Translations under genes and position numbers: made by a program
In this document: piece by piece, positions 2,979 through 27,850 of the stretch
Layout of the letters: every line of letters begins with the position of its first letter
Numbering within the stretch: the first letter of the stretch is position 1
The notes under the pieces: generated by a model
Told to the model about the DNA's origin: nothing
The model's database searches: none
Seen by the model: only the letters and a program-made list of their open reading frames with translations
Sequence record: QB031382.1
Length of the DNA: 64,000 nucleotides
Strand: one strand, 5' to 3'
Source of the DNA: a phage

Positions 2979-3461
2979 ATGTCAGATTTTATGTGGAAAG
3001 TAGGTTACGCAGCTCCTGAAATGTGTGAGGCTTGCTTTGTGAAAATAGGCCGCGAGGATATCGACAAAGTGATCCTTAAGTTTCGTGATGTGGCTGTGAT
3101 CGGCAACCGAGTGCTTAAGCACTTAAAGAATTTGAAGCTCACTAAAAAGAAGTTCTTCGGACTTTTCGAAGAGAAAGTTGATGCTTGGACCCATTGCATC
3201 CAGGAAGCTAAATCTCACTACAGTGCTATCGTTACTCCAGAACGGGTAGCCAAGATGGAAGGATTCATCAACAGCACAGAATTTGAGTGTCTGAAAGCTG
3301 CACTCGATAGTTATCCGAAATGCCTCAAGCACTTGGACAAGTATGTAGAAAAGGATGGGGAAATGTATCTCACCCTGGACGCATACTATGAGATGCAAGA
3401 AATTTTAAATTTAGATTTGACATTGGTATCCACCGAGTATACAATAGGTATCCGGGTTTAA
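2979..3461 (+). CDS. hypothetical protein
   Basis: SD AAGGAGA upstream; 160 aa. Confidence 0.55.
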   Translation: MSDFMWKVGYAAPEMCEACFVKIGREDIDKVILKFRDVAVIGNRVLKHLKNLKLTKKKFFGLFEEKVDAWTHCIQEAKSHYSAIVTPERVAKMEGFINSTEFECLKAALDSYPKCLKHLDKYVEKDGEMYLTLDAYYEMQEILNLDLTLVSTEYTIGIRV

Positions 3462-3466
3462 CACTA

Positions 3467-3495
3467 GGCCCTGCCCGAAAGGGTGGGGCTTTTTG
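3467..3495 (+). terminator. intrinsic terminator
   Basis: Hairpin GGCCCTGCCC-GAAA-GGGTGGGGC followed by TTTTT; same hairpin recurs at 13952. Confidence 0.6.
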
Positions 3496-6403: not shown

Positions 6404-8827
6404 ATGAGCATGTGGTCGTTCGATTTTGAGTCATCCGGTTTGCTGGAAGACCCAGATCTTTATTATCACTGCGGTCTGTTTAAAGAGTTGAATAAGAACC
6501 GTTTTATGCTGTTCCTTCCTCTAAATGACCGCACACACTACTCCGAGGAGGATATAGAAAAGGCTAAGAACTTCATTCTGGCAAAGAAAACTCTTTATAA
6601 AGATTTTGAAGTTCGCATAGCAGATTTTTCGGAGTTGGAAGGTTGGCTTACAGGAAATTCTGACTGGTCACCAACAGCTTTGAACTGCCATAACTGCTAC
6701 AGTTATGACTTTATGCTGATGGAAAGATTATCCGGTATTCATTTTGATATGTTCCGTGATCCTAAATGCATGGGGACTATCAACGACCACCAGGTTAACC
6801 TGTTTGATACGTTGGCGATGAGCCGAATCTTATGGCCTGATCGCCCTTTACCAAAAGGTTGTCCTGACTCCGTATTCAACCCGGTTACTAAGAAAATGCA
6901 GCCTGTTGGTCCTCACGGCCTTATGGCATGGGGCTACGCCCTTGGTAACCAGAAAGTTCAAATTGATGACTGGCGCGATCTTCCGTTGTGGAAGTATGTG
7001 GATCGTGTATTCGAGGACGTTATCATCCAGGAGCTGCTCTGGAAAGAGCTGGTAGCGGAATCAAAAGGTGTATTCTACGGCAAATCTGACATGCAGAACT
7101 TTATGTACGATCCTGCCAAAGAGAAGCCGAAAGGGTTCAAGAAGATCACCTGGAAGAACGCATTGCGCCGGGGTATGCTGCAACACTTCCTGATGGAGCT
7201 GCAGGCCCGTCAGGGTGTGTATTTTGACATAGATGGGGCTATTGCTTTACGTGACCGTTGCGATGCGTGGATGAAAGAAATCGCTGATCGTGTTGAACCA
7301 CAACTACCTTTAAAAGAGCTGTCAATGTCTCAGCGGCCCAAGTTCCCTGAAAAGCCGTTTAACCAAGATGGGACAATCTCCAATAATGGTTGGAAATGGT
7401 TAAAAGATAAGCTTGGCTATCCTGTGGACATGAGCGCTTTAGAGTTCAAAGCCCCACCTAAGCGAGCATTTACCTCCACAGGGGATGTCAGTAAGATGGG
7501 GATAAAATGGTGTGAAGAGATGGGCTGTAAAGACCCTGATAAGATGGCTGATTTCTTGAGGGGCTATATTAAGGGCACTTCCACACCACAACCTTTACCT
7601 AAAGAGCTAATGGATCAGGCAATAAGTGATCTACAGCAGAAGCGAATGCCTGACTGCAAGATACCTATGAAAATCAGCAATCAGGACGACATTAAGCGAT
7701 ACCTGATTAGTGCTGGTTGGCTTCCGACAATGTGGAGAACTAAGGATGTAACTAAAGACAGCAAGAAGAAAGCTCTACCTGATGCAGATGTTGATGCACG
7801 AGTATATGCATATATGGACGAGCTTTTAGAGTCAGAGTATTGTGACCTGATTATCAACTTCTGGAACAAAACTGATGCTAAGTTCCAGACAACCGTGCAC
7901 AAGTTCCGAAGCTTTCCTAACTCCGAAAGGATTAAAAAGGAAGTATTCGGGAAAATACGTAGAAAAGCTAGGGCACTTATTACTTCTCCGCAACTGAAAG
8001 ATACGTTTGGACACCTATGCCCTAATCTTGAAAAATTGAACGGAGAGATGGCTAAAGATATCGTCTTGTGGTTATCATTGCGAAACCGCAGATCGGTACT
8101 TGATCCAATTAAGGAGGATAAGGTTGATACTGGTCTTCTTAATCACCCACGTTTGAAGATTGACCATAAGCTTCCTGCTAAAAGTTCTGGGTTAACAAAC
8201 ACTTCCCGACAGAAACACAGTATTTGTGCGAACATGCCTAAACCATCTCCTAAAGTGGTTATGGGTAAAGAGATGCGTAGTCTGTGGGGTGTTCCTCCGG
8301 GATACTTTGAGATCGGTATTGACGGGTCCAACTTAGAGCAGCTTATCGGGGCTTGGGGTGCCTTTGAGTTCGACAACGGCTTGTATTATGATGTTGTAAG
8401 TAACGGGGACGCACACCAAAACAATGCTGAGGCATATACAAAAGTAGCAGGCAGAGAGGTGTCTCGTAACGACGGTAAACCTATCACGTATGGGGTTATG
8501 TACGGGGCACAAAAAGATAAAGTTGCAGACATGCTGGATATCTCTCCAGAGTTGGGGCAAAGGGTAATCGATGCGCTTTGGGATGCCAACCCCGGTCTTA
8601 AGGGGCGTAAAGAGGATCTAGAGAAATTCTGGGAAGCAACAGGTAAGAAATTTATCTACTCTTTTGACGGTCATGCCATTTGGACCCGCTCTAAACACTC
8701 TTTGCTTAATGCATATCAGCAAAATGGCGGTGCCTCGTTGTGCGACTTGGTCGGAATCCTCATGCACCACCAAATGGTGAAGCGTGGATGGTATGATGAG
8801 GGTGTTCGTCGTATTATTTATTACCAT
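6404..8827 (+). CDS. DNA polymerase, family A, exon 1
   Basis: Exo I SFDFESSGL, motif A GIDGSNLEQL, motif B KPITYGVMYG; exon ends at the CAT (His) codon 8825-8827 before the intron. Confidence 0.85.
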
Positions 8828-9155
8828 AAATAACATTGTGGCTTCGTGCAGTGATGCACGTCGAAAACCTCTTTAATTGACGGGAAGGCTAAGTTGACTT
8901 TTACACCTAAACATGGTAAAAGCTCAATATGCTAATCCGCAGCGAAGCATCCGAGAGGATGAACGTTCAGAGACTATCGAAAGCATAGCTCCAACATAGT
9001 TTGGTGTGAAGAAGCGAGTAGAGTAGGCCAGCAAGTGCGGTCGAAATGAGAGGTGCCTTGGTAACAAGGCAGTGAGATAGTCCGATCCATACGGGAAACT
9101 GTATGGCTATGCACGTAATGGTGCGGGGTAGCTTAACGACCTACCTGAACTATTG
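8828..9155 (+). ncRNA. group I self-splicing intron (no ORF) in the DNA polymerase gene
   Basis: Core elements P AATTGACGGGAA (8875-8886), Q AATCCGCAGC (8934-8943), R GTTCAGAGACTA (8965-8976), S GAGATAGTCC (9074-9083); U before 5' splice site pairs with guide GUGG 8838-8841; G9155 precedes 3' splice site. Confidence 0.75.
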
Positions 9156-17479: not shown

Positions 17480-18060
17480 AATCCCTGGCACATCAAACAT
17501 AAGGAGGATTTCTAAAATGGATTTCCTCCTTTTGATATTTTACCTGGCCGGATATTTTAAAATTCTTAGAAAATCAGAAAATGGATCGAAAACTAAAATG
17601 GATTTTTTCAAGACAGGCACGATAAGCTGTGCTAATCATCCTATCGTTCGCACCGTACTTCAAATCACCGTTCCAGATTTTCCGCACACACTCTCACCCT
17701 TCTACCAGAACTTTCCCAACTTACCTTCGGCCTTTTATGACAATAAGTTAATTATTATCAGTAAGTTTTGATACATCTCTCTCAGTACTCGATCTGTTTT
17801 TCATTTCAAAGATTGGATTTTCTGAAAATTTTTCTCGATAAATTTTTCGGTACTCGATCTGTTTTTCGTTTTCTGAATCGGATTTTCTTGAAATTGGTCC
17901 AGCACCAGATCTAAAATTTTTGGGAACGAAAGCGATTTTTCGTTTTCAGAAATGGATTTTTAAAATTTCTATATGGGAATATTTTATGAGGTATTATTTT
18001 ATATAGAATTGTCACGGTAGGTAATTAGCATGCTAACTAAATTTATGAAATGCGAAAAGT
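17480..18060. repeat. AT-rich non-coding region with iteron-like direct repeats
   Basis: TGGATTTT at least six times; GTACTCGATCTGTTTTTC twice, 65 bp apart. Confidence 0.5.
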
Positions 18061-18102
18061 TCTCATTTAGAATTTTGAATGATAATCATTCTCGTTTGCA
18101 GA

Positions 18103-18131
18103 ATAACGGGCACCCCCGGTGATTGTCTCCC
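18103..18131. repeat. GC-rich 29-nt element, left copy of inverted pair
   Basis: ATAACGGGCACCCCCGGTGATTGTCTCCC; exact reverse complement at 26211-26239; degenerate direct copy near 18240-18275. Confidence 0.6.
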
Positions 18132-18640
18132 GGCCCCTACTGCCCCGGCTTGCTATTATAGTATCACACAGGACAAAGAAAGCAAGGAGTTTTTGCATAA
18201 ATTTTTAGACGATAATGATAATCGTTCTCATTTCATGCAGCGCCCATCCCCGGTGGTTGTCTCCCCCGTCACCGGTGCCTGCCGTCCTTTCGATATGTAT
18301 ATTGTGCCACCTGGCGGGGCCGCTGTCAACACTTTTCAAAAATTTTTTTCTAACCTGATGCACTAACCGCTGCAACCTGGCGGGGCCAGCCTGGCAGGAC
18401 CTAACTGACCAGGTGGGCCTATGCTATAGGATAGGTAACAATTGAAGAGGAGGTACAAAAAATGGAAGGTAATATGATCCCCTGGAAAATGTAGCTATTA
18501 ATGACGCTGAGGCTATCGCCCTGGTTGAAAAGGCTATGGCGGGAGCGTTGGAACATAAAGAAGAGTACGAAAAAATTATGGTTAACCTGGCAGGGTCGGC
18601 GGCTGAGGAATTTTGCCCAAAAAATAATTTTAACTAGTGG

Positions 18641-18669
18641 TTGACAGCTCGGACAGTTTTTGCTATTCT
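18641..18669 (+). promoter_or_regulatory. sigma70-like promoter
   Basis: TTGACA, 17-bp spacer, TATTCT. Confidence 0.45.
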
Positions 18670-18721
18670 TATCCTCGCAAGGTGAACAACACCACACTAA
18701 TTAACAGAGAGGATAAAAATC

Positions 18722-18919
18722 ATGAACGCCTACGGAATCAAAGTACGTCGCAACACTCGCCAGGTGGTCACCAATCAAGTGATTTGCCGGGCGGATGTAA
18801 CCATCAACAACGGGCAAGGCCTTTATAAATTTCGTCGCGGTCATAGTTATACCCTGCAACAGCTTAATCGTTGCGCCCTGACAAAAGGCCAGATCAACCA
18901 CTGGTTTAATAAAAAATAA
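18722..18919 (+). CDS. hypothetical protein
   Basis: SD GAGAGGA upstream; promoter upstream. Confidence 0.5.
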   Translation: MNAYGIKVRRNTRQVVTNQVICRADVTINNGQGLYKFRRGHSYTLQQLNRCALTKGQINHWFNKK

Positions 18920-18922
18920 GTA

Positions 18923-18951
18923 TTGACATATAGCCTGACACAAAATACACT
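18923..18951 (+). promoter_or_regulatory. sigma70-like promoter
   Basis: TTGACA, 17-bp spacer, TACACT. Confidence 0.45.
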
Positions 18952-18983
18952 AAAAGCACAAAAGACACTAAGAGGATAAAATC

Positions 18984-19382
18984 ATGAAAACCACTACCTT
19001 TAATTTTGACAATGCGGACTTTTCTTTTTCTGATGTCAAGAACTGCCGCCGTGATCGTGGATTTTATAAGGCTTATAATCTGGTGGGCCTGGACGATGAC
19101 AATAATTTGCACGAAGTAGCTGAGATCCGGTATTATGCCGCCGCCAGTGGGAACACTCACTACTGCGTTTTTTGGATACACGACAACAAGAACAATAAGT
19201 ACGGCTATACTGGCGGCAAGGCGAGCGGTCACGGTTATGATAAAGCTAACGCAGCACTTGAGAGCGCATTAAATGCTATGGGGATCACTGCCGACGGCTG
19301 GATCTACGAAGAAGAGTTTTTGTCGGCACTTGCTGACCGCCTGGGATATAAAAAGCACATTGTAACATGTGCCCACGAATAA
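18984..19382 (+). CDS. hypothetical protein
   Basis: SD AAGAGGA upstream. Confidence 0.5.
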   Translation: MKTTTFNFDNADFSFSDVKNCRRDRGFYKAYNLVGLDDDNNLHEVAEIRYYAAASGNTHYCVFWIHDNKNNKYGYTGGKASGHGYDKANAALESALNAMGITADGWIYEEEFLSALADRLGYKKHIVTCAHE

Positions 19383-19393
19383 AAAAAAAATTA

Positions 19394-19421
19394 TTGACAC
19401 GCTGCAAAATTCAAGTAAACT
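19394..19421 (+). promoter_or_regulatory. sigma70-like promoter
   Basis: TTGACA, 16-bp spacer, TAAACT; A10 tract upstream. Confidence 0.45.
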
Positions 19422-19431
19422 AGACACAAAA

Positions 19432-19450
19432 GGCGGGAATGTTTCCCGCC
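19432..19450 (+). promoter_or_regulatory. 5' UTR stem-loop
   Basis: GGCGGGAA-TGT-TTCCCGCC between promoter and SD; related hairpins before ORFs 20154, 21997 and 22714. Confidence 0.5.
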
Positions 19451-19469
19451 AACACAAAGGAAAAAGATC

Positions 19470-19874
19470 ATGAATAAGAACGTACGCCGCATCATGAACG
19501 AGTTGGCAAACGATGAAAAAATTATTGACATGCATTTGATCAACATTTGCCGCCGTTGTGTAACATATAACAACCGCGCCGCAAAAGCGCGTGAGATGAA
19601 CGCAAAAGGCACCTTAAAGCCATTCCAGGTGGTGGTAAAGGCCATTAAAAATGTAACTAATACGGCAAACCAGGTACAGGGGAACACCAACGAGAGTACC
19701 AATATTGATCCGGCTTACATCATGAAACGGATCCGGACCTGTAAGAACAAAGAGCAAGTGTATAATGTTATAGACTGGTTGGATTCTATGGGCGACGTGG
19801 TGTACAATAGATTCTCGGCAGCTATTGAGATCCAGCTTGACAGGTTGGACGGTAAAGTACTGAAAACTTATTAA
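19470..19874 (+). CDS. hypothetical protein
   Basis: Promoter, 5' hairpin and SD upstream. Confidence 0.55.
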   Translation: MNKNVRRIMNELANDEKIIDMHLINICRRCVTYNNRAAKAREMNAKGTLKPFQVVVKAIKNVTNTANQVQGNTNESTNIDPAYIMKRIRTCKNKEQVYNVIDWLDSMGDVVYNRFSAAIEIQLDRLDGKVLKTY

Positions 19875-19885
19875 GTTTATTTTTA

Positions 19886-19909
19886 GATGGCCTTGACTCC
19901 AGGGCCATC
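19886..19909 (+). repeat. conserved 3' RNA hairpin element, copy 1
   Basis: GATGGCCTTG-ACTC-CAGGGCCATC between TTTATTTTTA and AATAAAGTAAAC. Confidence 0.55.
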
Positions 19910-20074
19910 AATAAAGTAAACTAGTCTCAACTAAGCGAAAAAGGGGGCTTTAAGATGAGCACTACACGCCAATACACAAAGGTAACTATTATCGTTTGCG
20001 TTGTCGGTTACATCCTGGCGCAAATGTTAATGAGTAGCGCCAACAGTTTTGCAAAATTTTTCTTAAATTTTTAA

Positions 20075-20102
20075 TTGACAAGCTAACCCAAATCAGTATA
20101 CT
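20075..20102 (+). promoter_or_regulatory. sigma70-like promoter
   Basis: TTGACA, 16-bp spacer, TATACT. Confidence 0.5.
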
Positions 20103-20153
20103 TAAACACGTAAACGGGAAAACTTCCCAGAACACACAAAAGGAGAAAACACC

Positions 20154-20495
20154 ATGACTACTATGACCGCCGCAGAAAAAGCTATGCAGATCGCCGCGCT
20201 GAAAAAACAGATCGCAGACCTTGAGAACAAGATCGATAACTTTGAAATCGACGAGGACAAGTACGACGAAAACTATAATGAATGGCTAGACGAGATCCAC
20301 GGCGAAATTATGATCGGTAACATTTCTTTTCTTCCGTCGCGTATCCTCAAGGAGTTAGATCCTATCGCTTACCGCTGCGGATTTAGCGACTACATCGACA
20401 GCCTGGGCATTGAGGACGACGAAGACTATCAAGAATTGCAGACAGAGTTGGAAGAAATGAAAGAGGAGCTTTCAAAGCTGGAAGAAAACGAGTAA
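20154..20495 (+). CDS. hypothetical coiled-coil acidic protein
   Basis: Promoter, 5' hairpin and SD AAAGGAGAA upstream. Confidence 0.55.
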   Translation: MTTMTAAEKAMQIAALKKQIADLENKIDNFEIDEDKYDENYNEWLDEIHGEIMIGNISFLPSRILKELDPIAYRCGFSDYIDSLGIEDDEDYQELQTELEEMKEELSKLEENE

Positions 20496-20507
20496 AATTT
20501 ATTTTTA

Positions 20508-20531
20508 GATGGCCTTGACCCCAGGGCCATC
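20508..20531 (+). repeat. conserved 3' RNA hairpin element, copy 2
   Basis: Near-identical to copy at 19886. Confidence 0.55.
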
Positions 20532-20581
20532 AATAAAGTAAACTTTACACTGTTACACTGAACTAATGAGGAGTTAAAACT

Positions 20582-20827
20582 ATGGCAGCACTAATCACAA
20601 AATATTATGCGCCCACCAACACCAAAAGCGCCCGTATCATGGTAAAAGGTTTCGGACGTAAAAAGGTCTACACCTGGGACTATTCCCTAGATATGGAAGA
20701 CAATTATACCAACGTAATGACTGATTTTATTAATGATCTGAATAAACAGATCCTAACCGACTACAAAGTGACCGATATTGTTTACATAGGTGAAGGCGGG
20801 ATCTGTTTTGTAGGCATTGTGAAATAG
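20582..20827 (+). CDS. hypothetical protein
   Basis: SD GAGGAG upstream. Confidence 0.5.
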   Translation: MAALITKYYAPTNTKSARIMVKGFGRKKVYTWDYSLDMEDNYTNVMTDFINDLNKQILTDYKVTDIVYIGEGGICFVGIVK

Positions 20828-20837
20828 TTATTTTTTC

Positions 20838-20862
20838 GGTGGTCCTGGTTGCAGGGGCCATC
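20838..20862 (+). repeat. conserved 3' RNA hairpin element, divergent copy
   Basis: GGTGGTCCT-GGTTGC-AGGGGCCATC; substitutions keep pairing only as G-U in plus-strand RNA. Confidence 0.45.
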
Positions 20863-20903
20863 TATAAAGATAATTTATTAACACCATGAAAGGAGAAAGT
20901 AAC

Positions 20904-21257
20904 ATGATCAGCGGGGCCAGTTTTATTATCGGCGCTATTGCTACGGCTTTAATTGTAAACAAGATCCAGGATAAAAAGGAAAGAGGAAGTACCGCCCTTG
21001 CAGAATATCCATTTTGGACATTCAACGATAACGAAGATTATATTATAAAGTATAAAAATAAAGAAGGCGACCAAGTAACACCGCGACCGATCCCGGCTTA
21101 CAAAATGCAGGAAACACTATACCGCCTTGAGGCGGGCGGCGCAAAAATTGTTGACTTTTGGGGATACGACCACACAGATCAGGAAGTTATAAAGCGCCGT
21201 ATCCGGGCTATTCAGGCCAATATTGAGGTTAGCAAGAGGGGAATATATGAAAATTAA
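20904..21257 (+). CDS. hypothetical membrane protein
   Basis: SD AAAGGAGAAAG before ATG; N-terminal hydrophobic helix. Confidence 0.5.
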   Translation: MISGASFIIGAIATALIVNKIQDKKERGSTALAEYPFWTFNDNEDYIIKYKNKEGDQVTPRPIPAYKMQETLYRLEAGGAKIVDFWGYDHTDQEVIKRRIRAIQANIEVSKRGIYEN

Positions 21258-21444
21258 TTTCGAGAAAATTGTAAAGCGCCCTCATGATTCCGAAGAGTTG
21301 CCAGAACGCCGCCAGCGCAACAATAAGCTGAATAAGCCAAAAAGGTTTGGGAAGATCTGGCGTAATCATTATGATCGTAAATTGCCCGGCCTACTTTTGG
21401 AACGTGAACGACAGGCAGAACGCTACCGCCATAAAGACAAATAA
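21247..21444 (+). CDS. hypothetical basic protein
   Basis: ATG overlapping upstream gene end; Lys/Arg-rich. Confidence 0.4.
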   Translation: MKINFEKIVKRPHDSEELPERRQRNNKLNKPKRFGKIWRNHYDRKLPGLLLERERQAERYRHKDK

Positions 21445-21452
21445 CAACCAAC

Positions 21453-21480
21453 GCCCCGCCATTGTGCGGGGCTTTTTATT
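21453..21480 (+). terminator. intrinsic terminator
   Basis: Hairpin GCCCCGC-CATTGT-GCGGGGC followed by TTTTTATTT. Confidence 0.65.
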
Positions 21481-21601
21481 TCTATCCTACGAATAGCGCC
21501 CCTGGTTGGCCCTGTAAGCGCCAAAAAGGCCCCCACCTATGCAATCGCCCCTTTAACCTGAAAACATCGCCCAGGGCCGTCCTATGGCGTTAAAAATATC
21601 A

Positions 21602-21629
21602 TTGACATCGTCAACAGGTTAGCTATACT
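21602..21629 (+). promoter_or_regulatory. sigma70-like promoter
   Basis: TTGACA, 16-bp spacer, TATACT. Confidence 0.5.
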
Positions 21630-21661
21630 AACCACATCAAAGAGAGAAAGGAGTAAACGCC

Positions 21662-21922
21662 ATGCGTAAATTAAAAAATTTTGATAAAGTTGATGTTATC
21701 CTGAATAATTTTTACTACTGCAACAATAAAGCTATCTGGTGGCGGGATAGTTCCACCGATAAAGTCAAAGCGCGCTTTCTTCAAGGGCACTGGCAAGGCC
21801 GCCCAGTGATTAAAATCATGGGGCAATTGGTAGCGTTTAAAAATTGCCGCCGCGTTGATGACGTTGAGGAGATTTTAAACATTTTGCGCCACAATAATTT
21901 AAAAAATAGTGTTGACAAGTAG
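21662..21922 (+). CDS. hypothetical protein
   Basis: SD AAAGGAG upstream. Confidence 0.5.
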   Translation: MRKLKNFDKVDVILNNFYYCNNKAIWWRDSSTDKVKARFLQGHWQGRPVIKIMGQLVAFKNCRRVDDVEEILNILRHNNLKNSVDK

Positions 21923-21939
21923 ATCTCAATAAGTATAAT
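21912..21939 (+). promoter_or_regulatory. sigma70-like promoter
   Basis: TTGACA, 16-bp spacer, TATAAT. Confidence 0.55.
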
Positions 21940-21949
21940 TAAACACACA

Positions 21950-21968
21950 GGCGGGAAAACTTCCCGCC
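21950..21968 (+). promoter_or_regulatory. 5' UTR stem-loop
   Basis: GGCGGGAA-AAC-TTCCCGCC. Confidence 0.5.
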
Positions 21969-21996
21969 ACTAACAAAGAAAACAGGAGAAAATATC

Positions 21997-22620
21997 ATGA
22001 CCACCGTTAACATTACCACAGGTTACAATTTATCTTTCGACGTGCTGACCGACGAACAAAAAGAAAAAGCCATTGAAATGGTCCGCGAAAGAGAAGAACG
22101 TAGCGGGGACGATTTTTTCGCAGAAAATGTAATTGAATACTATAAAGAACAAGTTTTTCCAGAGTACGGCCTTGAGGATACCGAAGTACATTGGTCCGGC
22201 TTTTGGTGTCAAGGCGATGGCGCATCGATCAGTGCTGAAAATGTAGACTTAGAAAAATTCTTGCGTAAAGTCAAGGCCCTGACCAAGTTCAGATCAATTC
22301 GTCACTTGTTCGGCACAATGCACGATGGCGAACTATCCGCCAGTGTTGAACGCGACAAGTACAGCCATTACAGCCATGAAAACACTATAAGCGGGTACAT
22401 TGATACCACTTGGATAGATCTGACCGCCAAACAAGAAAACAAAGTGGAAGACCTGGAAGAATTGATCACCGAGACGGTACGGGAGCTATCCCGCAAGGTT
22501 TACGTAGACCTTGAGGAGGCCTATCTAGAACAGTTCACCGCAGAAAACCTGATCGGCCTTATTCAGGCCAATGATTGGCGGTTTGATGTCGATGAATATG
22601 GTGAGATGACTTTTTCATAA
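21997..22620 (+). CDS. hypothetical protein
   Basis: Promoter, hairpin and SD upstream; 207 aa. Confidence 0.55.
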   Translation: MTTVNITTGYNLSFDVLTDEQKEKAIEMVREREERSGDDFFAENVIEYYKEQVFPEYGLEDTEVHWSGFWCQGDGASISAENVDLEKFLRKVKALTKFRSIRHLFGTMHDGELSASVERDKYSHYSHENTISGYIDTTWIDLTAKQENKVEDLEELITETVRELSRKVYVDLEEAYLEQFTAENLIGLIQANDWRFDVDEYGEMTFS

Positions 22621-22628
22621 ATAAAGTG

Positions 22629-22656
22629 TTGCAATAACCTAAAAACCTGCTATATT
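22629..22656 (+). promoter_or_regulatory. sigma70-like promoter
   Basis: TTGCAA, 16-bp spacer, TATATT. Confidence 0.45.
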
Positions 22657-22713
22657 AAAACTCAAGGGGGGCAAGACATTTGCCCGCCAACACAAAACAA
22701 AGAGGATAACATC

Positions 22714-23094
22714 ATGAAAAATACTACTAAGGCTATTGACACCGTTATGTTTAACCTGGTTACACTCCGTGAAGATATGAAAGATCTTCCGCGTGAAACA
22801 GTGTGCGACCATATCGAAAACTATCGCAAACTAATCAAAGAGTTGCCATTAAAACGAGATCAGTACGCGGCTAACGCTATGCTAAACGCCATGATCAAAA
22901 AGATGATCCAGTGTGATCTAACCCTGGCCTATGATTATGCAGGCGGTCGTTTTGCAGTATACAATCAGCCCGTGCCTGGTATGAGCACCACCGAAGAATT
23001 GCACGCGCTCAATCTAAAACAGGACGTGTGGGATAGTATGCCTCGCGTGGTGGTATGGGTAGAAAGCGGGAAGATTTACGGCGATAATTTTTAA
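22714..23094 (+). CDS. hypothetical protein
   Basis: SD AAGAGGA upstream. Confidence 0.5.
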   Translation: MKNTTKAIDTVMFNLVTLREDMKDLPRETVCDHIENYRKLIKELPLKRDQYAANAMLNAMIKKMIQCDLTLAYDYAGGRFAVYNQPVPGMSTTEELHALNLKQDVWDSMPRVVVWVESGKIYGDNF

Positions 23095-23158
23095 TCAGGT
23101 AGCAGGCGGCATAATTGCCGCCTTATTGTTGATCAGAACTGCAAAAGGGGTACATAGA

Positions 23159-23530
23159 ATGGAATTTATTATTTTGGCCGTATTGGTTGCCTTATTTAAC
23201 GCCTGGATCGCTGGCAAGATGGGAAGATCCGCCTTTTTATGGTTTATTATATCTATTTTCCTGGGGGTGGTTGCAACTATTGTACTGGTTATCCTTGCAA
23301 TTGTTGACAAGGGGAATAATAGAAAGGGTAAAGTATTTTCAGACCTGTACGACGCTCAAACGTTTGTCAACGCCTATTACAGCGATCTTCCAGTCTCCCT
23401 ACGTTGCAGCCTTGCACAACAGGTTTTTGATGAGGCTAAAACCAGAGATCACGCCCATGAGATTTGTTTAACTGAGGCGGATCGCTTATTTGAGAGGAAT
23501 AGAAAATATGTGGGCCAGCCGTTTAAATAA
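23159..23530 (+). CDS. hypothetical membrane protein
   Basis: Two predicted TM helices; ATG after AAGGGG. Confidence 0.5.
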   Translation: MEFIILAVLVALFNAWIAGKMGRSAFLWFIISIFLGVVATIVLVILAIVDKGNNRKGKVFSDLYDAQTFVNAYYSDLPVSLRCSLAQQVFDEAKTRDHAHEICLTEADRLFERNRKYVGQPFK

Positions 23531-23873
23531 TACCACGTTAATTAATCCATTTAGTGAAGATTTGAGGCCAGCCGCCTGGCGGAATGGATTCAATAACGAA
23601 AAATTTACTTTTAGGCCTGATCTTGAGGAATTTTATAACAATGGATCGAACAACGACAGAAATAATTTTTCTCGTAATGTGCGTGGCGATAATACTCCTG
23701 GGGGCCATTGTAAACCACGTCACTGCTAACAGGAGGAAAGGGGGAGACGATGACAACCAAGGATAAGCCCAGCACCGACAAGGCGCGCCGCGTTATGGTA
23801 TGGCTTGAGATTATCGCCCTTGAAATATTGTTAGGCGTAGGGATGTATTTTATCGCCGTACGTACCTGATAAC

Positions 23874-23906
23874 GGCCCCCGATCCCTGGGGGCCTGACTT
23901 TTTTCA
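23874..23906 (+). terminator. intrinsic terminator
   Basis: Hairpin GGCCCCC-GATCCCT-GGGGGCC followed by T-rich tract. Confidence 0.55.
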
Positions 23907-23933
23907 AAAAAAAAAATTTTTTCTTCCGGGGTG

Positions 23934-23961
23934 TTGCAATCCGGTCCGGAATATGGATAAT
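23934..23961 (+). promoter_or_regulatory. sigma70-like promoter
   Basis: TTGCAA, 16-bp spacer, GATAAT; shares ATATGGATAATA box with promoter at 24752. Confidence 0.45.
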
Positions 23962-24020
23962 AACAATCAACGGGGAGACACTCCCCACCACACAGACAAA
24001 GTTCCAAAAGGAGAAACAAA

Positions 24021-24221
24021 ATGAGCAACAATATCCGCGTTATTAACTTCAAAAAAGAAGAAAAAATAGCTGTGCTGGTTGATGGTCAAGAAATATTCAA
24101 GGGGTATTACGAAGATCATCAGGCGGCGATCAGTATTACCCGCGTAATTGGTTACCATAATTTTTACCCTCAAGGCGCTGAGGCAGCAGTAAAACGAATT
24201 AAGGAGATTGTAGGCCTGTAA
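24021..24221 (+). CDS. hypothetical protein
   Basis: SD AAAGGAGAA upstream. Confidence 0.5.
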   Translation: MSNNIRVINFKKEEKIAVLVDGQEIFKGYYEDHQAAISITRVIGYHNFYPQGAEAAVKRIKEIVGL

Positions 24222-24233
24222 AATTTATTTTTA

Positions 24234-24257
24234 GATGGCCTTGACCCCAGGGCCATC
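24234..24257 (+). repeat. conserved 3' RNA hairpin element, copy 3
   Basis: Near-identical to copies at 19886 and 20508. Confidence 0.55.
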
Positions 24258-24313
24258 AAATAAAGTAAATTTAAAACCTGTTAAAATAATCAGTGCAAAA
24301 AGGAGAAATGATC

Positions 24314-24613
24314 ATGTTTATACCCGCCAATGATCTTTATTTCTTTGATGGTCAGATCGTAGACGGCGTGGAAGTTGAGATCGCTGGATGTAAAGGCGGC
24401 CAGGTAATGATCTTCCGCAATAGTGCCTTTAACGATCATTTTATTACAATGACTGTGGAAGTTAAAAAGCTGGATGATAAGAAAACACTCATTGACTATT
24501 CCGTGAAAGATCATCCAGACTACCACATGATCTATGGTGATTTGTGCATTGTTGACCGTGACAAGGTGGGCGGCATTGTGATCGCTATTGTGAACGATGT
24601 TTTCTCTGAATAA
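24314..24613 (+). CDS. hypothetical protein
   Basis: SD AAGGAGAA 8 nt before ATG. Confidence 0.5.
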   Translation: MFIPANDLYFFDGQIVDGVEVEIAGCKGGQVMIFRNSAFNDHFITMTVEVKKLDDKKTLIDYSVKDHPDYHMIYGDLCIVDRDKVGGIVIAIVNDVFSE

Positions 24614-24673
24614 TTCCGGCAAATGATGCAAAATAAGGCCCATGGCAGGGCCTGCAGCGATATAATCACACAA

Positions 24674-24703
24674 AGGCTATGCAGTTGCATGGCCTTTTTA
24701 TTT
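24674..24703 (+). terminator. intrinsic terminator
   Basis: Hairpin AGGCTATGCA-GT-TGCATGGCCT followed by TTTTATTTT. Confidence 0.5.
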
Positions 24704-24751
24704 TAGCGCTACAGCGGCCCCCAAGGCGTTTAAAAAATTTTTAAAAAGTAC

Positions 24752-24779
24752 TTGCATCAAGTCCGACAATATGGATAAT
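24752..24779 (+). promoter_or_regulatory. sigma70-like promoter
   Basis: TTGCAT, 16-bp spacer, GATAAT. Confidence 0.45.
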
Positions 24780-24838
24780 AGGACTTATCAGGGGGGGGCG
24801 GCCCCCAATCATTAACCGGATAGATGGGAGTTAAAATC

Positions 24839-25123
24839 ATGGCTATTGTTACCGTGGGCGATGTAGTAGAAATGGAAGCAAAATACTTAAAAGCGGGTAT
24901 GCATATCCTACGCAACGATCTTGAACTAGTCCTGACAATGGTCGACTATAATCCCGGTCAGGATTATCCAAGCATCGACTACTTTTTCCAGTATGTTGAC
25001 GAAGAATTAAAAGAAGATGACGCTTATCGTGGTGAATTTTGCAATTTCTTTTGCCCTGATGAGGTTGTAAAAGTTATCTATCAACCTGGCGTACCTTTCC
25101 CGTTGCACGCCATCAATAAATAA
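24839..25123 (+). CDS. hypothetical protein
   Basis: ATG after GGGAG. Confidence 0.5.
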   Translation: MAIVTVGDVVEMEAKYLKAGMHILRNDLELVLTMVDYNPGQDYPSIDYFFQYVDEELKEDDAYRGEFCNFFCPDEVVKVIYQPGVPFPLHAINK

Positions 25124-25584
25124 GCCTGGCGGGGCCGAAAAAGGCCCCTCCTGAAACTATGAAAAAATAAAGATAGGTGAATCATCATGATGGAACAAAT
25201 TAAACGCGCTGAGGCTATTAATGGCAATGATGCCGCCAACATGACAGAATGAAAAACATCATTTACAGATTGACAAAACGCAACATCATGATCGCCACCG
25301 TGATCGCTTGCCTTTTCGCTTTCGTGAGTAACGCAACGTTTAACGCCGTGGGCCGGGTGGTGTTTAATGCTGGCAGTGTTTCAACAGCTAACACAATAAT
25401 CGATTGTTTGCAACTTTTCTTTTATGTTGCCTTTCGTTTAAAAATAGCTTGCAAGGTAGACCGTTTTGATTTACCTTTTATTTGTGGCGGCGTGATCGCT
25501 ATCGTATGCTAACAGAGGATCAGAAGAAAAGTGTACGACATAGGGCGGGGCAATAAGGCAACGCCCATTAATGAGGGTGGAATC

Positions 25585-25689
25585 ATGTTAGAAAAAATTT
25601 TCACGGTTGTAGTAGTTGGCATGGCATTATCGGTTGGAGTGGTTGCAACTATGGCTAACATGATCCTATCTTCCCACGGTATCGGGTAA
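25585..25689 (+). CDS. small hydrophobic peptide (34 aa)
   Basis: Hand-translated MLEKIFTVVVVGMALSVGVVATMANMILSSHGIG; SD GAGGGTGG upstream. Confidence 0.4.
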   Translation: MLEKIFTVVVVGMALSVGVVATMANMILSSHGIG

Positions 25690-25699
25690 GGTGAAACAA

Positions 25700-25858
25700 A
25701 TGATCACGAACAAAACAGGAAAAACGGAATTTTTACGCGGCTTGCAAATAGGTAAGCCTGAGATCTGGTATTGCACTAAAACACCACGTGACGAAATGAA
25801 AGATTTTACCGCCACGCTGAAGCGGGTAAAGATATCTATCACGCAGAAAAAGCCTTGA
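25700..25858 (+). CDS. small protein (52 aa)
   Basis: Hand-translated MITNKTGKTEFLRGLQIGKPEIWYCTK...; SD AAGGTG upstream. Confidence 0.4.
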   Translation: MITNKTGKTEFLRGLQIGKPEIWYCTKTPRDEMKDFTATLKRVKISITQKKP

Positions 25859-26004
25859 TAGTGGTGGAAGGTGAGATCCCTCAAGCCGTTGTTATAGTTG
25901 AGCGTACAGCATAGTTTAATCTATACCGTACGCCCCATTAACTAACAAAGCATAAGCAGGCGGCGGTGACCGCCTTGAACGCAACAGAAAGAGAATAGAA
26001 AAGC

Positions 26005-26139
26005 ATGAGAAAGGTAATTATCACCATAGGGATCGTGGCGGCAATGTTGGCGATCTTTCCCTTTATGGTTAGGTATGTGCTGATCAGTATTGTCCTGATA
26101 GTCAGTGGTCTATTGGAAACGGTTGGCAACTGGTTTTAA
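26005..26139 (+). CDS. small membrane protein (44 aa)
   Basis: Hand-translated MRKVIITIGIVAAMLAIFPFMVRYVLISIVLIVSGLLETVGNWF. Confidence 0.4.
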   Translation: MRKVIITIGIVAAMLAIFPFMVRYVLISIVLIVSGLLETVGNWF

Positions 26140-26210
26140 GATAATAAACAGGGCTTGCAATGGTCCTGTTTTTTGTTATACTTATCTCACGGGTGGCACC
26201 TGGCGACGGG

Positions 26211-26239
26211 GGGAGACAATCACCGGGGGTGCCCGTTAT
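26211..26239. repeat. GC-rich 29-nt element, right (inverted) copy
   Basis: Exact reverse complement of 18103-18131. Confidence 0.6.
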
Positions 26240-26258
26240 ATAAAAACTATAAAAACAG

Positions 26259-26287
26259 TTGACATCTGCCAGGTGGTTAGGTAACAT
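26259..26287 (+). promoter_or_regulatory. sigma70-like promoter
   Basis: TTGACA, 17-bp spacer, TAACAT. Confidence 0.45.
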
Positions 26288-26341
26288 TTATCTTGAAGGG
26301 GCAAAAGTGCCCACACAACAACCAGAAGAGAGGAAAACATT

Positions 26342-26614: not shown

Positions 26615-26675
26615 TAAGATAATGACACGGGCCAAAAGGCCCACCAAACCAGAACCCCATAAAGAGGAAAACATC

Positions 26676-26978: not shown

Positions 26979-27731
26979 TGCTCTTTTCCTACCATAAACG
27001 GCCCTACCTGGCAAGTGGAATAATTGACGAGCCATTAATCCCGCACACTGTACAAATATACATATAAAATAACTATTGCATAATCTTTCATCTTGTGGTA
27101 GCAGGGTCATTTTTACACGTTTTTCCTTCCAAAAATGCACGTAATGCAGCTATTGCACAAAATTTAACCTGATGCACATTTTCAGCATACTGTCAACAAT
27201 TAAAAACCCTTATAAATCATACACTTACACAAACCAAAAAGCGTGTCCTACGTGAAAAATCGGGTGTAACTATAGCCGACAGATCTCAGAATCCACGTAC
27301 GATCACCATTCTATAGCCTGCTAAGTATTTATTCCAACCACAGAATAACGGAATAGTCAATACCTGTACAAAATAATTATTCGTATAAACTGCATAACAT
27401 AAATTTTCTCATGTGTAAACATTTTTCGTAAACAGTCCGAAATTGTCACGATAGGTTACTATAATCAGAGAAATCTTTAGTCGTCTAATGTTTACTGCAC
27501 ATAACTATACTGACTGGAATCATTAGATGACTAAGAGAAAGATAAGAAATAGTTAACAATGTAATTGTTTTACCTGTAACAATAAGGCAACTATGCAAAC
27601 GAATGTCATGGCGCGACGGAGTCGCGACATAATATAAAAGCAGTAACCATCACCCCCGTGATAGTTTATCTGCAAACTATTGATCAGATCATAGTTGCCT
27701 TAGATTTAGTTAATCATGACATAATAAGCAA

Positions 27732-27759
27732 GGCAACTATAGATCTGATAATAGTTGCC
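27732..27759. repeat. perfect palindrome
   Basis: GGCAACTAT-AGATCTGAT-AATAGTTGCC; half-sites recur nearby. Confidence 0.55.
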
Positions 27760-27789
27760 CTGCTTTTATATTATGTCATATATTATTAA

Positions 27790-27850
27790 CCTGTTAATTG
27801 TCAGCTTATTGGCTGTTAGCTTGTCAATTGTTAACTTGTTAATTGTTATC
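27790..27850. repeat. four tandem 15-bp iteron-like repeats
   Basis: CTGTTAATTGTCAGC / TTATTGGCTGTTAGC / TTGTCAATTGTTAAC / TTGTTAATTGTTATC. Confidence 0.55.

Follow-up and report, generated by a model that had tools for sequence, protein, structure and literature searches.

Promoter-early stem-loops and the gene array of the window

The closest described counterparts of the element studied here are the promoter-early stem-loops (PeSLs) of the T4-like phages RB49/phi1, T4/PST and KVP40/nt-1 (Arbiol et al. 2010, PMC2839356; Comeau et al. 2014, PMC4122927). A PeSL consists of an A/T-rich region, a σ70 consensus promoter, a stem-loop built from a G-run and a C-run in one of five positions, a Shine-Dalgarno (SD) sequence and an ORFan (PMC2839356, PMC4122927). 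The position of the stem-loop is variable, and one of the five published subclasses places it downstream of the -10 box (PMC2839356). PeSLs are concentrated in hyperplastic regions, where they mediate modular shuffling (PMC2839356, PMC4122927). Here we analyzed a repeated expression cassette of similar composition, found between 18.6 and 26.4 kb of a 64,000-nucleotide stretch of phage DNA (sequence record QB031382.1; this whole stretch is referred to as the window). Like the PeSLs, the cassettes of the window are repeated and intergenic, stand amid small ORFans in a variable region, and consist of a near-consensus σ70 promoter after an A/T-rich stretch, a stem-loop whose G-run precedes its C-run, a leader rich in A and C, a strong SD and an ATG; moreover, gene gain and loss between close relatives breaks inside them.

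The lineage and the place of the hairpin set these cassettes apart from the PeSLs. The window belongs to the genus Vequintavirus and phage phi92, which carries comparable arrays, to the genus Justusliebigvirus (Stephanstirmvirinae), whereas the PeSL family was defined in T4-like myoviruses. When the variable region of RB49 was analyzed with the same script, its hairpins were located mostly in the spacer that separates the -35 box from the -10 box (offset -23, six cassettes with almost the same sequence) or on the -10 box itself, and only ORF207 had a hairpin 10 nt past the -10 box. The RB49 hairpin lies mostly outside its own transcript and its copies are nearly identical, whereas the dominant class in the window is predicted to be transcribed, has an offset of 10-13 nt and is diverse in sequence. 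In addition, terminator activity and mini-circles have been shown for RB49/phi1, whereas the window cassettes are described here from their sequence. By this comparison, the window cassettes belong to the PeSL kind but stand outside the T4 lineage, and in their dominant form the hairpin has shifted into the (predicted) transcript. For phages of the rV5, phi92, phAPEC8 and PVP-SE1 types, a literature search retrieved neither a report of PeSLs or of such hairpins nor a transcript map.

The second group of described systems comprises leaders of individual mRNAs. The leader of T7 gene 10 carries a 5'-terminal stem-loop that acts as a stabilizer. E. coli mRNAs are likewise described as being stabilized by stem-loops at the 5' end (Emory 1992, Bouvet and Belasco 1992, Arnold 1998, Bricker and Belasco 1999, as listed in PMC3997798), and the hindrance of RppH and RNase E by a 5'-proximal stem-loop is presented as established for the ompA and papA leaders (PMC3997798; also PMC9943677). 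The window cassettes share with the ompA, papA and T7 gene 10 leaders a stem-loop at, or a few bases from, the (predicted) 5' end, an unstructured leader and a strong SD. Protection in these leaders is independent of the sequence of the hairpin, which fits the diversity of the hairpins found here. The difference is that ompA, papA and T7 gene 10 are single leaders tested by experiment, whereas here the module is repeated on many early genes across entire groups of phages and stands under promoters of the host type.

A search of phage databases with the 7.65-kb stretch that holds the cassettes gave matches to 245 phage records, the closest of which were Escherichia phage VB-EcoM-WM (96.9% identity), FV3 (96.2%) and rV5 (approximately 90%), all three members of Vequintavirus. 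Over more than 90% of the query, 22 records named 'Campylobacter phage' (host Campylobacter jejuni; e.g. MG065677 and MG065635) match it at 92-93% identity; they carry no annotation and are probably mislabelled or contaminant coliphage genomes. In rV5, the counterpart of the stretch comprises ORFs 196 to 168 (ORF, open reading frame), and the rV5 genome paper assigns it to the proposed transcription unit '10-1-238-164'. The array is made of small hypothetical genes, all on one strand. Ten array proteins matched only families of 'unknown function' in PHROGs, and none of the ten proteins tested against Pfam reached a family cutoff; the array genes are ORFans of unknown function. We are highly confident in describing the region as a variable early-gene array of an rV5-like phage with modular expression cassettes of the PeSL kind. 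The small ORFs that an earlier reading of the letters (hereafter the sequence-only reading) had placed downstream of the cassettes are there, except that two listed ORFs more likely have other start codons, in line with the annotation of relatives: the one at 24824 the ATG at 24839, and the one at 20886 the ATG at 20904.

Hairpins at a fixed distance from the promoter

The sequence-only reading had claimed at least 12 near-consensus promoters, and we counted 14 σ70-like sites, all on the + strand between 18.6 and 26.4 kb. Seven are of the TTGACA type (18641, 18923, 19394, 20075, 21602, 21912 and 26259), four of the TTGCAA/TTGCAT type (22629, 23934, 24752 and 26155), and three, with an 18-bp spacer, are of a TTGACY type that lies within a 61-nt repeat named D1 (19893, 20515 and 24241). 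Each promoter stands before a small ORFan, and the 20-mers upstream of the -35 boxes contain 12 to 19 A or T bases. The enrichment is confined to one strand: between 18601 and 26400, nine sites on the + strand match the consensus at 10 or more of 12 positions, compared with 1.5 ± 1.2 (maximum 6) expected from 300 dinucleotide shuffles, with none on the - strand; the count of TTGACA is 13 versus 2.6 expected. The promoter part of the finding is not new, because the TTGACA-type promoters had been predicted for rV5 earlier; eight of them correspond to the in silico predictions P195B, P195, P194, P192, P186, P185, P168 and P164, the last of which lies just outside. Three TTGACA-type promoters have no class-A hairpin, that is, no hairpin after the -10 box:

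18641-18669, + strand: P18641, TTGACA-17-TATTCT with a TG upstream of the -10 box; drives ORF 18722-18919; corresponds to rV5 P195B
18923-18951, + strand: P18923, TTGACA-17-TACACT; leader rich in A and C and free of structure; drives ORF 18984-19382; corresponds to rV5 P195/P195A
21602-21629, + strand: P21602, TTGACA-16-TATACT; corresponds to rV5 P186

Seven other promoters, one of them with a weak structure, are followed by a compact GC-rich hairpin. These class-A cassettes are listed below, where the offset is the distance from the last base of the -10 hexamer to the first paired base:

19394-19469, + strand: P19394, TTGACA-16-TAAACT (19394-19421); hairpin GGCGGGAAtgtTTCCCGCC at 19432-19450 (-13.1 kcal/mol, z = -4.1 versus shuffles), offset 11; leader AACACAAAGGAAAAAGATC; ATG 19470; rV5 P194
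20075-20153, + strand: TTGACA-16-TATACT (20075-20102); weak hairpin GGGAAaacTTCCC at 20116-20128 (-4 to -5.5 kcal/mol), offset 14; leader AGAACACACAAAAGGAGAAAACACC; ATG 20154; rV5 P192
21912-21996, + strand: P21912, TTGACA-16-TATAAT, 12 of 12 consensus positions (21912-21939); hairpin GGCGGGAAaacTTCCCGCC at 21950-21968 (-13.1 kcal/mol), offset 11; leader ACTAACAAAGAAAACAGGAGAAAATATC; ATG 21997; rV5 P185
22629-22713, + strand: P22629, TTGCAA-16-TATATT with a TGn extended -10 (22629-22656); hairpin at 22666-22688 with a GGGCAAgacatTTGCCC core (-13.3 kcal/mol), offset 10-12; leader AACACAAAACAAAGAGGATAACATC; ATG 22714
23924-24020, + strand: P23934, a two-hairpin cassette; a first hairpin at 23924-23951 covers the -35 box TTGCAA (23934), and the -10 box GATAAT, within the AATATGGATAATA box, ends at 23961
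23924-24020, + strand: class-A part of the P23934 cassette; hairpin GGGGAGacaCTCCCC at 23972-23986 (-9.0 kcal/mol), offset 11; A/C-rich leader; SD AAGGAG; ATG 24021
24752-24838, + strand: P24752, TTGCAT-16-GATAAT (24752-24779, in the AATATGGATAATA box); hairpin GGGGG..CCCCC at 24791-24806 (-10.0 kcal/mol), offset 12; ATG 24839
26259-26341, + strand: P26259, TTGACA-17-TAACAT (26259-26287); hairpin GGGCAaaagTGCCC at 26299-26312 (-6.8 kcal/mol), offset 12; leader ACACAACAACCAGAAGAGAGGAAAACATT; ATG 26342; rV5 P168
25543-25566, + strand: orphan hairpin of the class-A type, GGGCGGGGCAATAAGGCAACGCCC, whose promoter is missing here; homology to phages EdH4 and Alma starts at 25541

All the elements quoted in the sequence-only reading were recovered in place or within a few bases, including the GGCGGGAA..TTCCCGCC hairpins at 19432 and 21950, the related ones at 20116, 22666, 23972, 24791 and 26299, and the AATATGGATAATA box common to P23934 and P24752, and the anatomy that it had proposed (promoter, hairpin, leader, SD and small ORF) is supported. 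The first paired base lies 10-12 nt past the last base of the -10 hexamer, or 14 nt in the case of the weak hairpin at 20116. Because they sit downstream of the -10 box, the class-A hairpins fall within the predicted transcript, as had been proposed, and are very probably transcribed as part of the cassette mRNA. Alternative promoters that would place the hairpins in the spacer from the -35 to the -10 box, as in RB49, were rejected since no -10-like hexamer is found past the hairpins. A hairpin of -5 kcal/mol or stronger at an offset of 10-14 follows 6 of the 14 promoters, against a background of 7.1% (binomial P = 2.4e-4). Class-A loops differ from one cassette to another (TGT, AAC, GACAT, ACA, GGGCGG and AAAG). 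The leaders past the hairpin are composed of 57% A, 27% C, 8.5% G and 7% T, versus 32, 20, 23 and 25% regionally, and are followed by a strong SD and the ATG. The promoter that the orphan hairpin lacks is present elsewhere: in EdH4 and Alma, GGGCGGGGCAATAAGGCAACGCCC lies 11 nt past a promoter that matches the consensus at 10 or more of 12 positions, and in phi92 a close variant, GGCGGGGCAATAAGGCAACGCC, lies 12 nt past a promoter of the same quality.

We then compared the cassettes with those of nine Vequintavirus loci and of metagenomic contigs. For the seven class-A cassettes, the hairpin is kept at the same place in every orthologue, and the changes that it has undergone are mostly located in the loop or preserve pairing. 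In phage MiataMamis, GGCGGTTGAtacTCAGCCGCC replaces GGCGGGAAtgtTTCCCGCC at the same offset; the stem of P22629 occurs as GGGGCAAG/TTTGCCCC and as GGGGCGAG/CTTGCCCC; and the third pair of P24752 is G-C in nine variants, G-U in one and A-U in two. Homologues of ORF 22714 were picked by protein similarity alone (64-75% identity; phi92-type and related contigs), with scans returning five loci in IMG/VR and nine in metagenomes. Five of seven homologues have another promoter, and the hairpin that follows it at an offset of 12-14 (GGCGGGAAAtggTTTCCCGCC or one of its variants) is unrelated; the other two, which are Av-05-like, have no hairpin. The early arrays of phi92-type phages are very regular and consist of TTGACA, 16-17 bp, TAxxxT, approximately 10 nt (often GTATCACATAG), the hairpin, an A-rich leader and the SD. 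In phi92 itself, 15 of the 24 genes from gp225 to gp248 have a promoter, and at least nine of these 15 have a hairpin at offset 10-12.

Pooling the promoters of the window, 14 related loci and phi92 gave 156 distinct sequences, which are not independent of one another. A hairpin of -6 kcal/mol or stronger is present in 73 of them, in 64 cases at offset 10-13 and in 56 at offset 11-12, whereas hairpin starts are evenly spread around 600 random positions. Among 31 distinct hairpins, the G-rich arm is always first (G:C of 151:38 in the 5' arm and 37:143 in the 3' arm), and seven G-U pairs are found versus two A-C mismatches. Both the polarity and the G-U pairs fit a role on the transcribed strand, and the spacing kept despite changed hairpin sequences argues for that role being structural. 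The 31 different sequences at one position, replaced and compensated stems among them, show that structure is conserved, which by itself does not demonstrate an effect. A position-locked 5' hairpin spanning two phage subfamilies appears to be undescribed.

The cassettes are also places where genomes break. Blast comparison of the window with the nine relatives revealed repeated whole-gene indels with junctions in cassette motifs. Insertions of 283 nt (S127 BCL3) and 588 nt (MiataMamis) have TTGACA(T) at both ends and cross over in the -35 box of P21602, so that P21602 combines two promoters, with the join at that box. A leader/SD sequence of approximately 30 nt, present in two copies, flanks the 278-nt insertion of rV5 at 26652-26670, and ATGAAAAAGAT flanks a 288-nt insertion at 26000, in the start codon region. 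At 25541, the very boundary between the lost promoter and the surviving hairpin (25543-25566), the window again becomes homologous to EdH4 and Alma. The segment 25525-26242, which contains two or three tiny ORFs and a GC-rich element, is approximately 85% identical to phAPEC8-type phages (Phapecoctavirus, another subfamily), which otherwise have no match to the query; this indicates mosaic exchange between subfamilies. The microhomologies at the junctions are suggestive of cassette recombination and not proof of it, and PeSL-like shuffling outside the T4-like phages appears to be undescribed. An rV5 note states that ORF167 resembles an RB49 protein; a tblastn search returned Vequintavirus and a few siphovirus-sized phages, with no RB49 among the matches listed.

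Possible functions of the hairpins

We somewhat favor an explanation in which the 5'-proximal stem-loop stabilizes and insulates the early mRNAs. It builds on the observed anatomy, fixed spacing, structure kept across changed sequence, polarity, absence of a U-tract, and junctions. E. coli RNA polymerase normally starts transcription 6-9 nt past the -10 box, and because the first pair lies 10-14 nt past this box, the class-A stem is predicted to begin at approximately +2 to +6, leaving about 2-5 unpaired 5' bases in most cassettes. E. coli RNA polymerase would fire each promoter immediately after infection, and the 5'-proximal stem-loop of the resulting mRNA would hinder 5'-end-dependent decay, that is, conversion by RppH and the entry and scanning of RNase E. 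In read-through transcripts, the hairpin would fold independently, and the leader, being poor in G and U, could not pair with the SD, which would remain free. Expression from a cassette would thus be strong and independent of context, read-through transcripts included, and the short motifs shared by the cassettes (-35 box, hairpin and leader/SD) would serve as recombination points at which genes are gained, lost or swapped with their expression intact. That mRNA stabilization is the main role of the hairpin, taken by itself, we put at slightly short of an even chance.

Several points weigh against this explanation. The 2-5 unpaired bases predicted at the 5' end are at the edge of the published range for protection, and our literature search found no mapped transcription start site for any Vequintavirus. 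The equivalent hairpins of RB49 are inside the promoter and cannot be 5' stabilizers, and PeSL-type hairpins may share one common function of a different kind; in addition, one RB49 stem-loop lowered the expression of a downstream lacZ by roughly the same amount as the terminator rrnB T1 (PMC2839356). Half of the array promoters (P18641, P18923, P21602 and the D1 class) have no 5' hairpin, and the hairpin is therefore not required for early expression. Covariation among relatives, which had been proposed as a check, is modest because the relatives are close (87-97% identity): at P24752, 93% of the cells are paired, with a single compensated pair in the formal count, and 28 of 500 shuffles score as high. 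The replaced hairpins and the distant homologues of ORF 22714 carry more weight. Some variants even carry a single disruptive mismatch (SophiaRose and MiataMamis at P21912, S127 at P26259). As to the shuffling, intergenic junctions are also expected from selection against gene disruption alone.

The lacZ result bears on another reading, in which the class-A hairpins are terminators or attenuators that limit the build-up of read-through from upstream transcription and stand after promoters only incidentally. Such a role was proposed by the PeSL authors (PMC2839356), and the cassette design otherwise matches that of RB49. The GenBank records of EdH4 and Alma also tag 5'-leader hairpins orthologous to 19432-19450 and 21950-21968 as 'terminator' (2262-2280 in the EdH4 locus, L003; 4259-4283 and 6774-6795 in the Alma locus, L009), the 21950 orthologue being 'Terminator_18' in Alma, although these hairpins follow promoters and have no T-run. 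The class-A hairpins resemble intrinsic terminators in being short, GC-rich and intergenic, but they have no U-tract and come after promoters, not after genes. The terminators of the array are separate elements, most of them upstream of promoters (21453, 23874, 24672 and 26146):

21453-21480, + strand: intrinsic terminator GCCCCGC..GCGGGGC followed by TTTTTATT
23104-23131, + strand: intrinsic terminator AGGCGGCAtaatTGCCGCCT followed by TATTGTTG
23874-23904, + strand: intrinsic terminator GGCCCCCG..TGGGGGCC followed by TGACTTTTTT
24627-24705, + strand: a pair of terminator hairpins, one at 24627-24659 and one at 24672-24697, with TTATTTTA after the latter; a 344-nt gene insertion that many relatives carry has its junction at 24627
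26146-26182, + strand: terminator hairpin 26146-26171 followed by TTTGTTAT; encloses the -35 box TTGCAA of P26155 (extended -10, TGtTATACT); a conserved GC-rich 50-nt element, which is not a gene, comes next

Counting T in the 8 nt that follow the stem gives 5-7 for the region's six real terminators (21453, 23104, 23874, 24672, 26146 and 26951), compared with 0, 1, 0, 0, 3 and 0 for the class-A hairpins, and a scan for terminators on the + strand left the class-A hairpins uncalled. Judged by the U-tract, the class-A hairpins are not intrinsic terminators. The same scan flagged - strand terminators at 19450-19432, 21968-21950 and 23990-23968; these were rejected because there are no genes or promoters on the - strand here and because the T-richness of their flanks is missing from the other window cassettes and from phi92-type cassettes. 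A terminator role would also leave unexplained why unrelated hairpins keep a spacing of 10-13 nt in two phage subfamilies. Altogether, we regard this reading as unlikely, though it is the main alternative. Part of its appeal comes from hairpins that lie over the -35 box (class B):

19880-19922, + strand: class-B cassette in D1; hairpin GATGGCCTTGACTCCAGGGCCATC at 19886-19909 encloses the -35 box TTGACT (19893); the -10 box TAAACT ends at 19922; drives ORF 19955-20074
20502-20544, + strand: class-B cassette in D1; hairpin at 20508-20531 over the -35 box TTGACC (20515); the -10 box TAAACT ends at 20544; drives ORF 20582-20827
20838-20876, + strand: diverged D1-like hairpin GGTGGTCCTGGTTGCAGGGGCCATC at 20838-20862, then a weak promoter-like stretch; upstream of ORF 20904-21257
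24228-24270, + strand: class-B cassette in D1; hairpin at 24234-24257 over the -35 box TTGACC (24241); drives ORF 24314-24613

The D1 repeat covers 19862-19922, 20484-20544 and 24210-24270, with the diverged copy at approximately 20838, and in IMG/VR it was found in rV5-like contigs only. Its hairpin, GATGGCCTTGACYCCAGGGCCATC, has 10 bp (-16.3 kcal/mol, z = -4.4) and encloses the -35 box. Together with P23934 and P26155, the D1-type sites bring the -35-overlapping hairpins of the window to six. Since a class-B hairpin encloses the -35 box, it lies outside its own transcript and can act only on upstream transcripts or on the DNA, which is in keeping with a terminator or attenuator role. The sequence-only reading had overlooked these class-B cassettes, as it had the match to PeSLs, the break points at cassettes and the prior rV5 promoter predictions. 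The GC-rich element near P26155 contains a core, GGGAGACAA(T/C)CACCGGGG(G/A)TG(C/G)CCG, with three copies in the window, at 26190-26240 (+), 18103-18131 (-) and 18231-18267 (-); two of the copies, which lie 8 kb from each other, make up a perfect inverted repeat of 29 nt. The core copies are located approximately 25-30 nt downstream of promoter-like sites, namely P26155 (+) and a TTGACA-17-CACAAT at 18329 (-). The core folds marginally better than shuffles (z = -2.0, +0.3 and -2.2), has no match in Rfam, and may represent either a small RNA or a site bound by a protein.

An addition to the stabilization of early mRNAs would be that the 5' hairpins mark phage mRNAs for self-protection, sparing them while an Srd-like protein speeds the decay of host mRNA by RNase E. 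T4 Srd is reported to stimulate the degradation of host mRNA by RNase E (Qi et al. 2015, as cited in PMC4980113), and gp11 of rV5 is annotated as Srd-like, with PHROGs matches to 'Srd anti-sigma factor' (E = 6e-9) and 'decoy of host sigma70' (E = 6e-12). The best PHROGs match of gp11 is a family labelled HNH endonuclease, and the Srd-like gene lies outside the window. We consider this self-protection improbable.

We give still less credence to the inverted repeats acting as DNA, either as operators, at approximately +15, for a phage protein that shuts the early promoters or as integron-like recombination sites formed by a hairpin or cruciform. The palindromes do occupy a position at which repressor binding is common, many copies of a CGGGAA..TTCCCG core are found in both the rV5 and the phi92 groups, and indel junctions fall at cassette motifs, one of them exactly at the promoter/hairpin boundary at 25541; furthermore, the PeSL authors speculated on a recombination protein that binds stem-loops (PMC2839356). 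Nevertheless, stems differ so widely within one genome (GGCGGGAA, GGGGCAAG, GGGGAG, GGGGG and GGGCA) that they offer no common half-site, and both the G-first polarity and the G-U pairs point to a single transcribed strand. The crossovers observed fall within the -35 box, within the leader/SD or at the start codon, with none in the hairpin stems, and no integrase or recombinase was linked to the palindromes, the window not having been searched for such genes.

The sequence-only reading had inferred a coordinated control of mRNA stability or translation. A role in stability is plausible, given that the spacing is kept while the sequence changes, whereas coordination found no support: loops and stems differ between cassettes, so that there is no common recognition site for one regulator, and half of the promoters have no hairpin. 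Lambdoid phages have hairpins downstream of their early promoters, and the structure found here recurs at the same place in many (predicted) early transcripts, yet a common trans-acting RNA-binding factor that recognizes the hairpins and coordinates the early mRNAs, or its variant of nut/put antitermination, is very improbable, as the 3-6-nt loops are unrelated between cassettes, the stems differ, no boxA-like motif accompanies the hairpins, no flanking motif beyond A/C richness is shared, no Rfam family was found in the region, and a factor of this kind would miss the half of the array promoters that have no hairpin. By their loops and the lack of boxA, the class-A hairpins do not qualify as nut/boxB or put-type antitermination RNA. 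A more fitting reading of the hairpin is that of a constitutive module independent of sequence.

Other features of the window and implications for coliphages

The remaining features of the window lie outside the cassettes. An Rfam scan of the whole window detected no family in the gene-array region, and a tRNA search of the window found none. The scan did identify a group I catalytic intron at 8818-9105 (+), with a full-length match to the model (RF00028, 75.6 bits, E = 2e-17). Just upstream of the gene array, an apparently non-coding stretch at approximately 17775-18400 contains three imperfect 47-nt direct repeats (17775-17960), which are 65-74 nt apart; the rV5 paper mentions a 'non-coding' box without ORFs. 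At 3417-3495 (+), a promoter-like TTGACA-17-TACAAT is followed approximately 20 nt on by a hairpin of -20 kcal/mol with a T-run (GGCCCTGCCCGAAAGGGTGGGGCTTTTT); the transcript would be very short and is a possible small RNA or attenuator. The + strand gene array ends at 27600-27800 in a cluster of strong hairpins that includes an 18-nt perfect inverted repeat (27626-27643 and 27760-27777) and 34-nt direct repeats. Beyond approximately 27.8 kb, promoter-like sites are mostly on the - strand, and the cluster may be a convergent terminator zone.

If the starts of transcription map as predicted, the rV5-like and phi92-like coliphages, two large groups that both serve in work on phage therapy and biocontrol, place a stem-loop of no set sequence at the start of many early mRNAs and at a constant distance from the promoter. 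The 'terminator' annotations that class-A hairpins carry in databases would then be corrected. The cassettes offer a natural set of compact modules, each with a promoter, a 5' hairpin and a ribosome-binding site, for synthetic biology, and landmarks for tracing gene shuffling in rV5-like and phi92-like genomes. They also provide a simple, testable model for strong, context-independent expression of early ORFan genes. With starts that map as predicted, the PeSL concept would also extend beyond the T4-like phages, and one modular cassette would be seen to have its hairpin either inside the promoter or at the 5' end of the mRNA.

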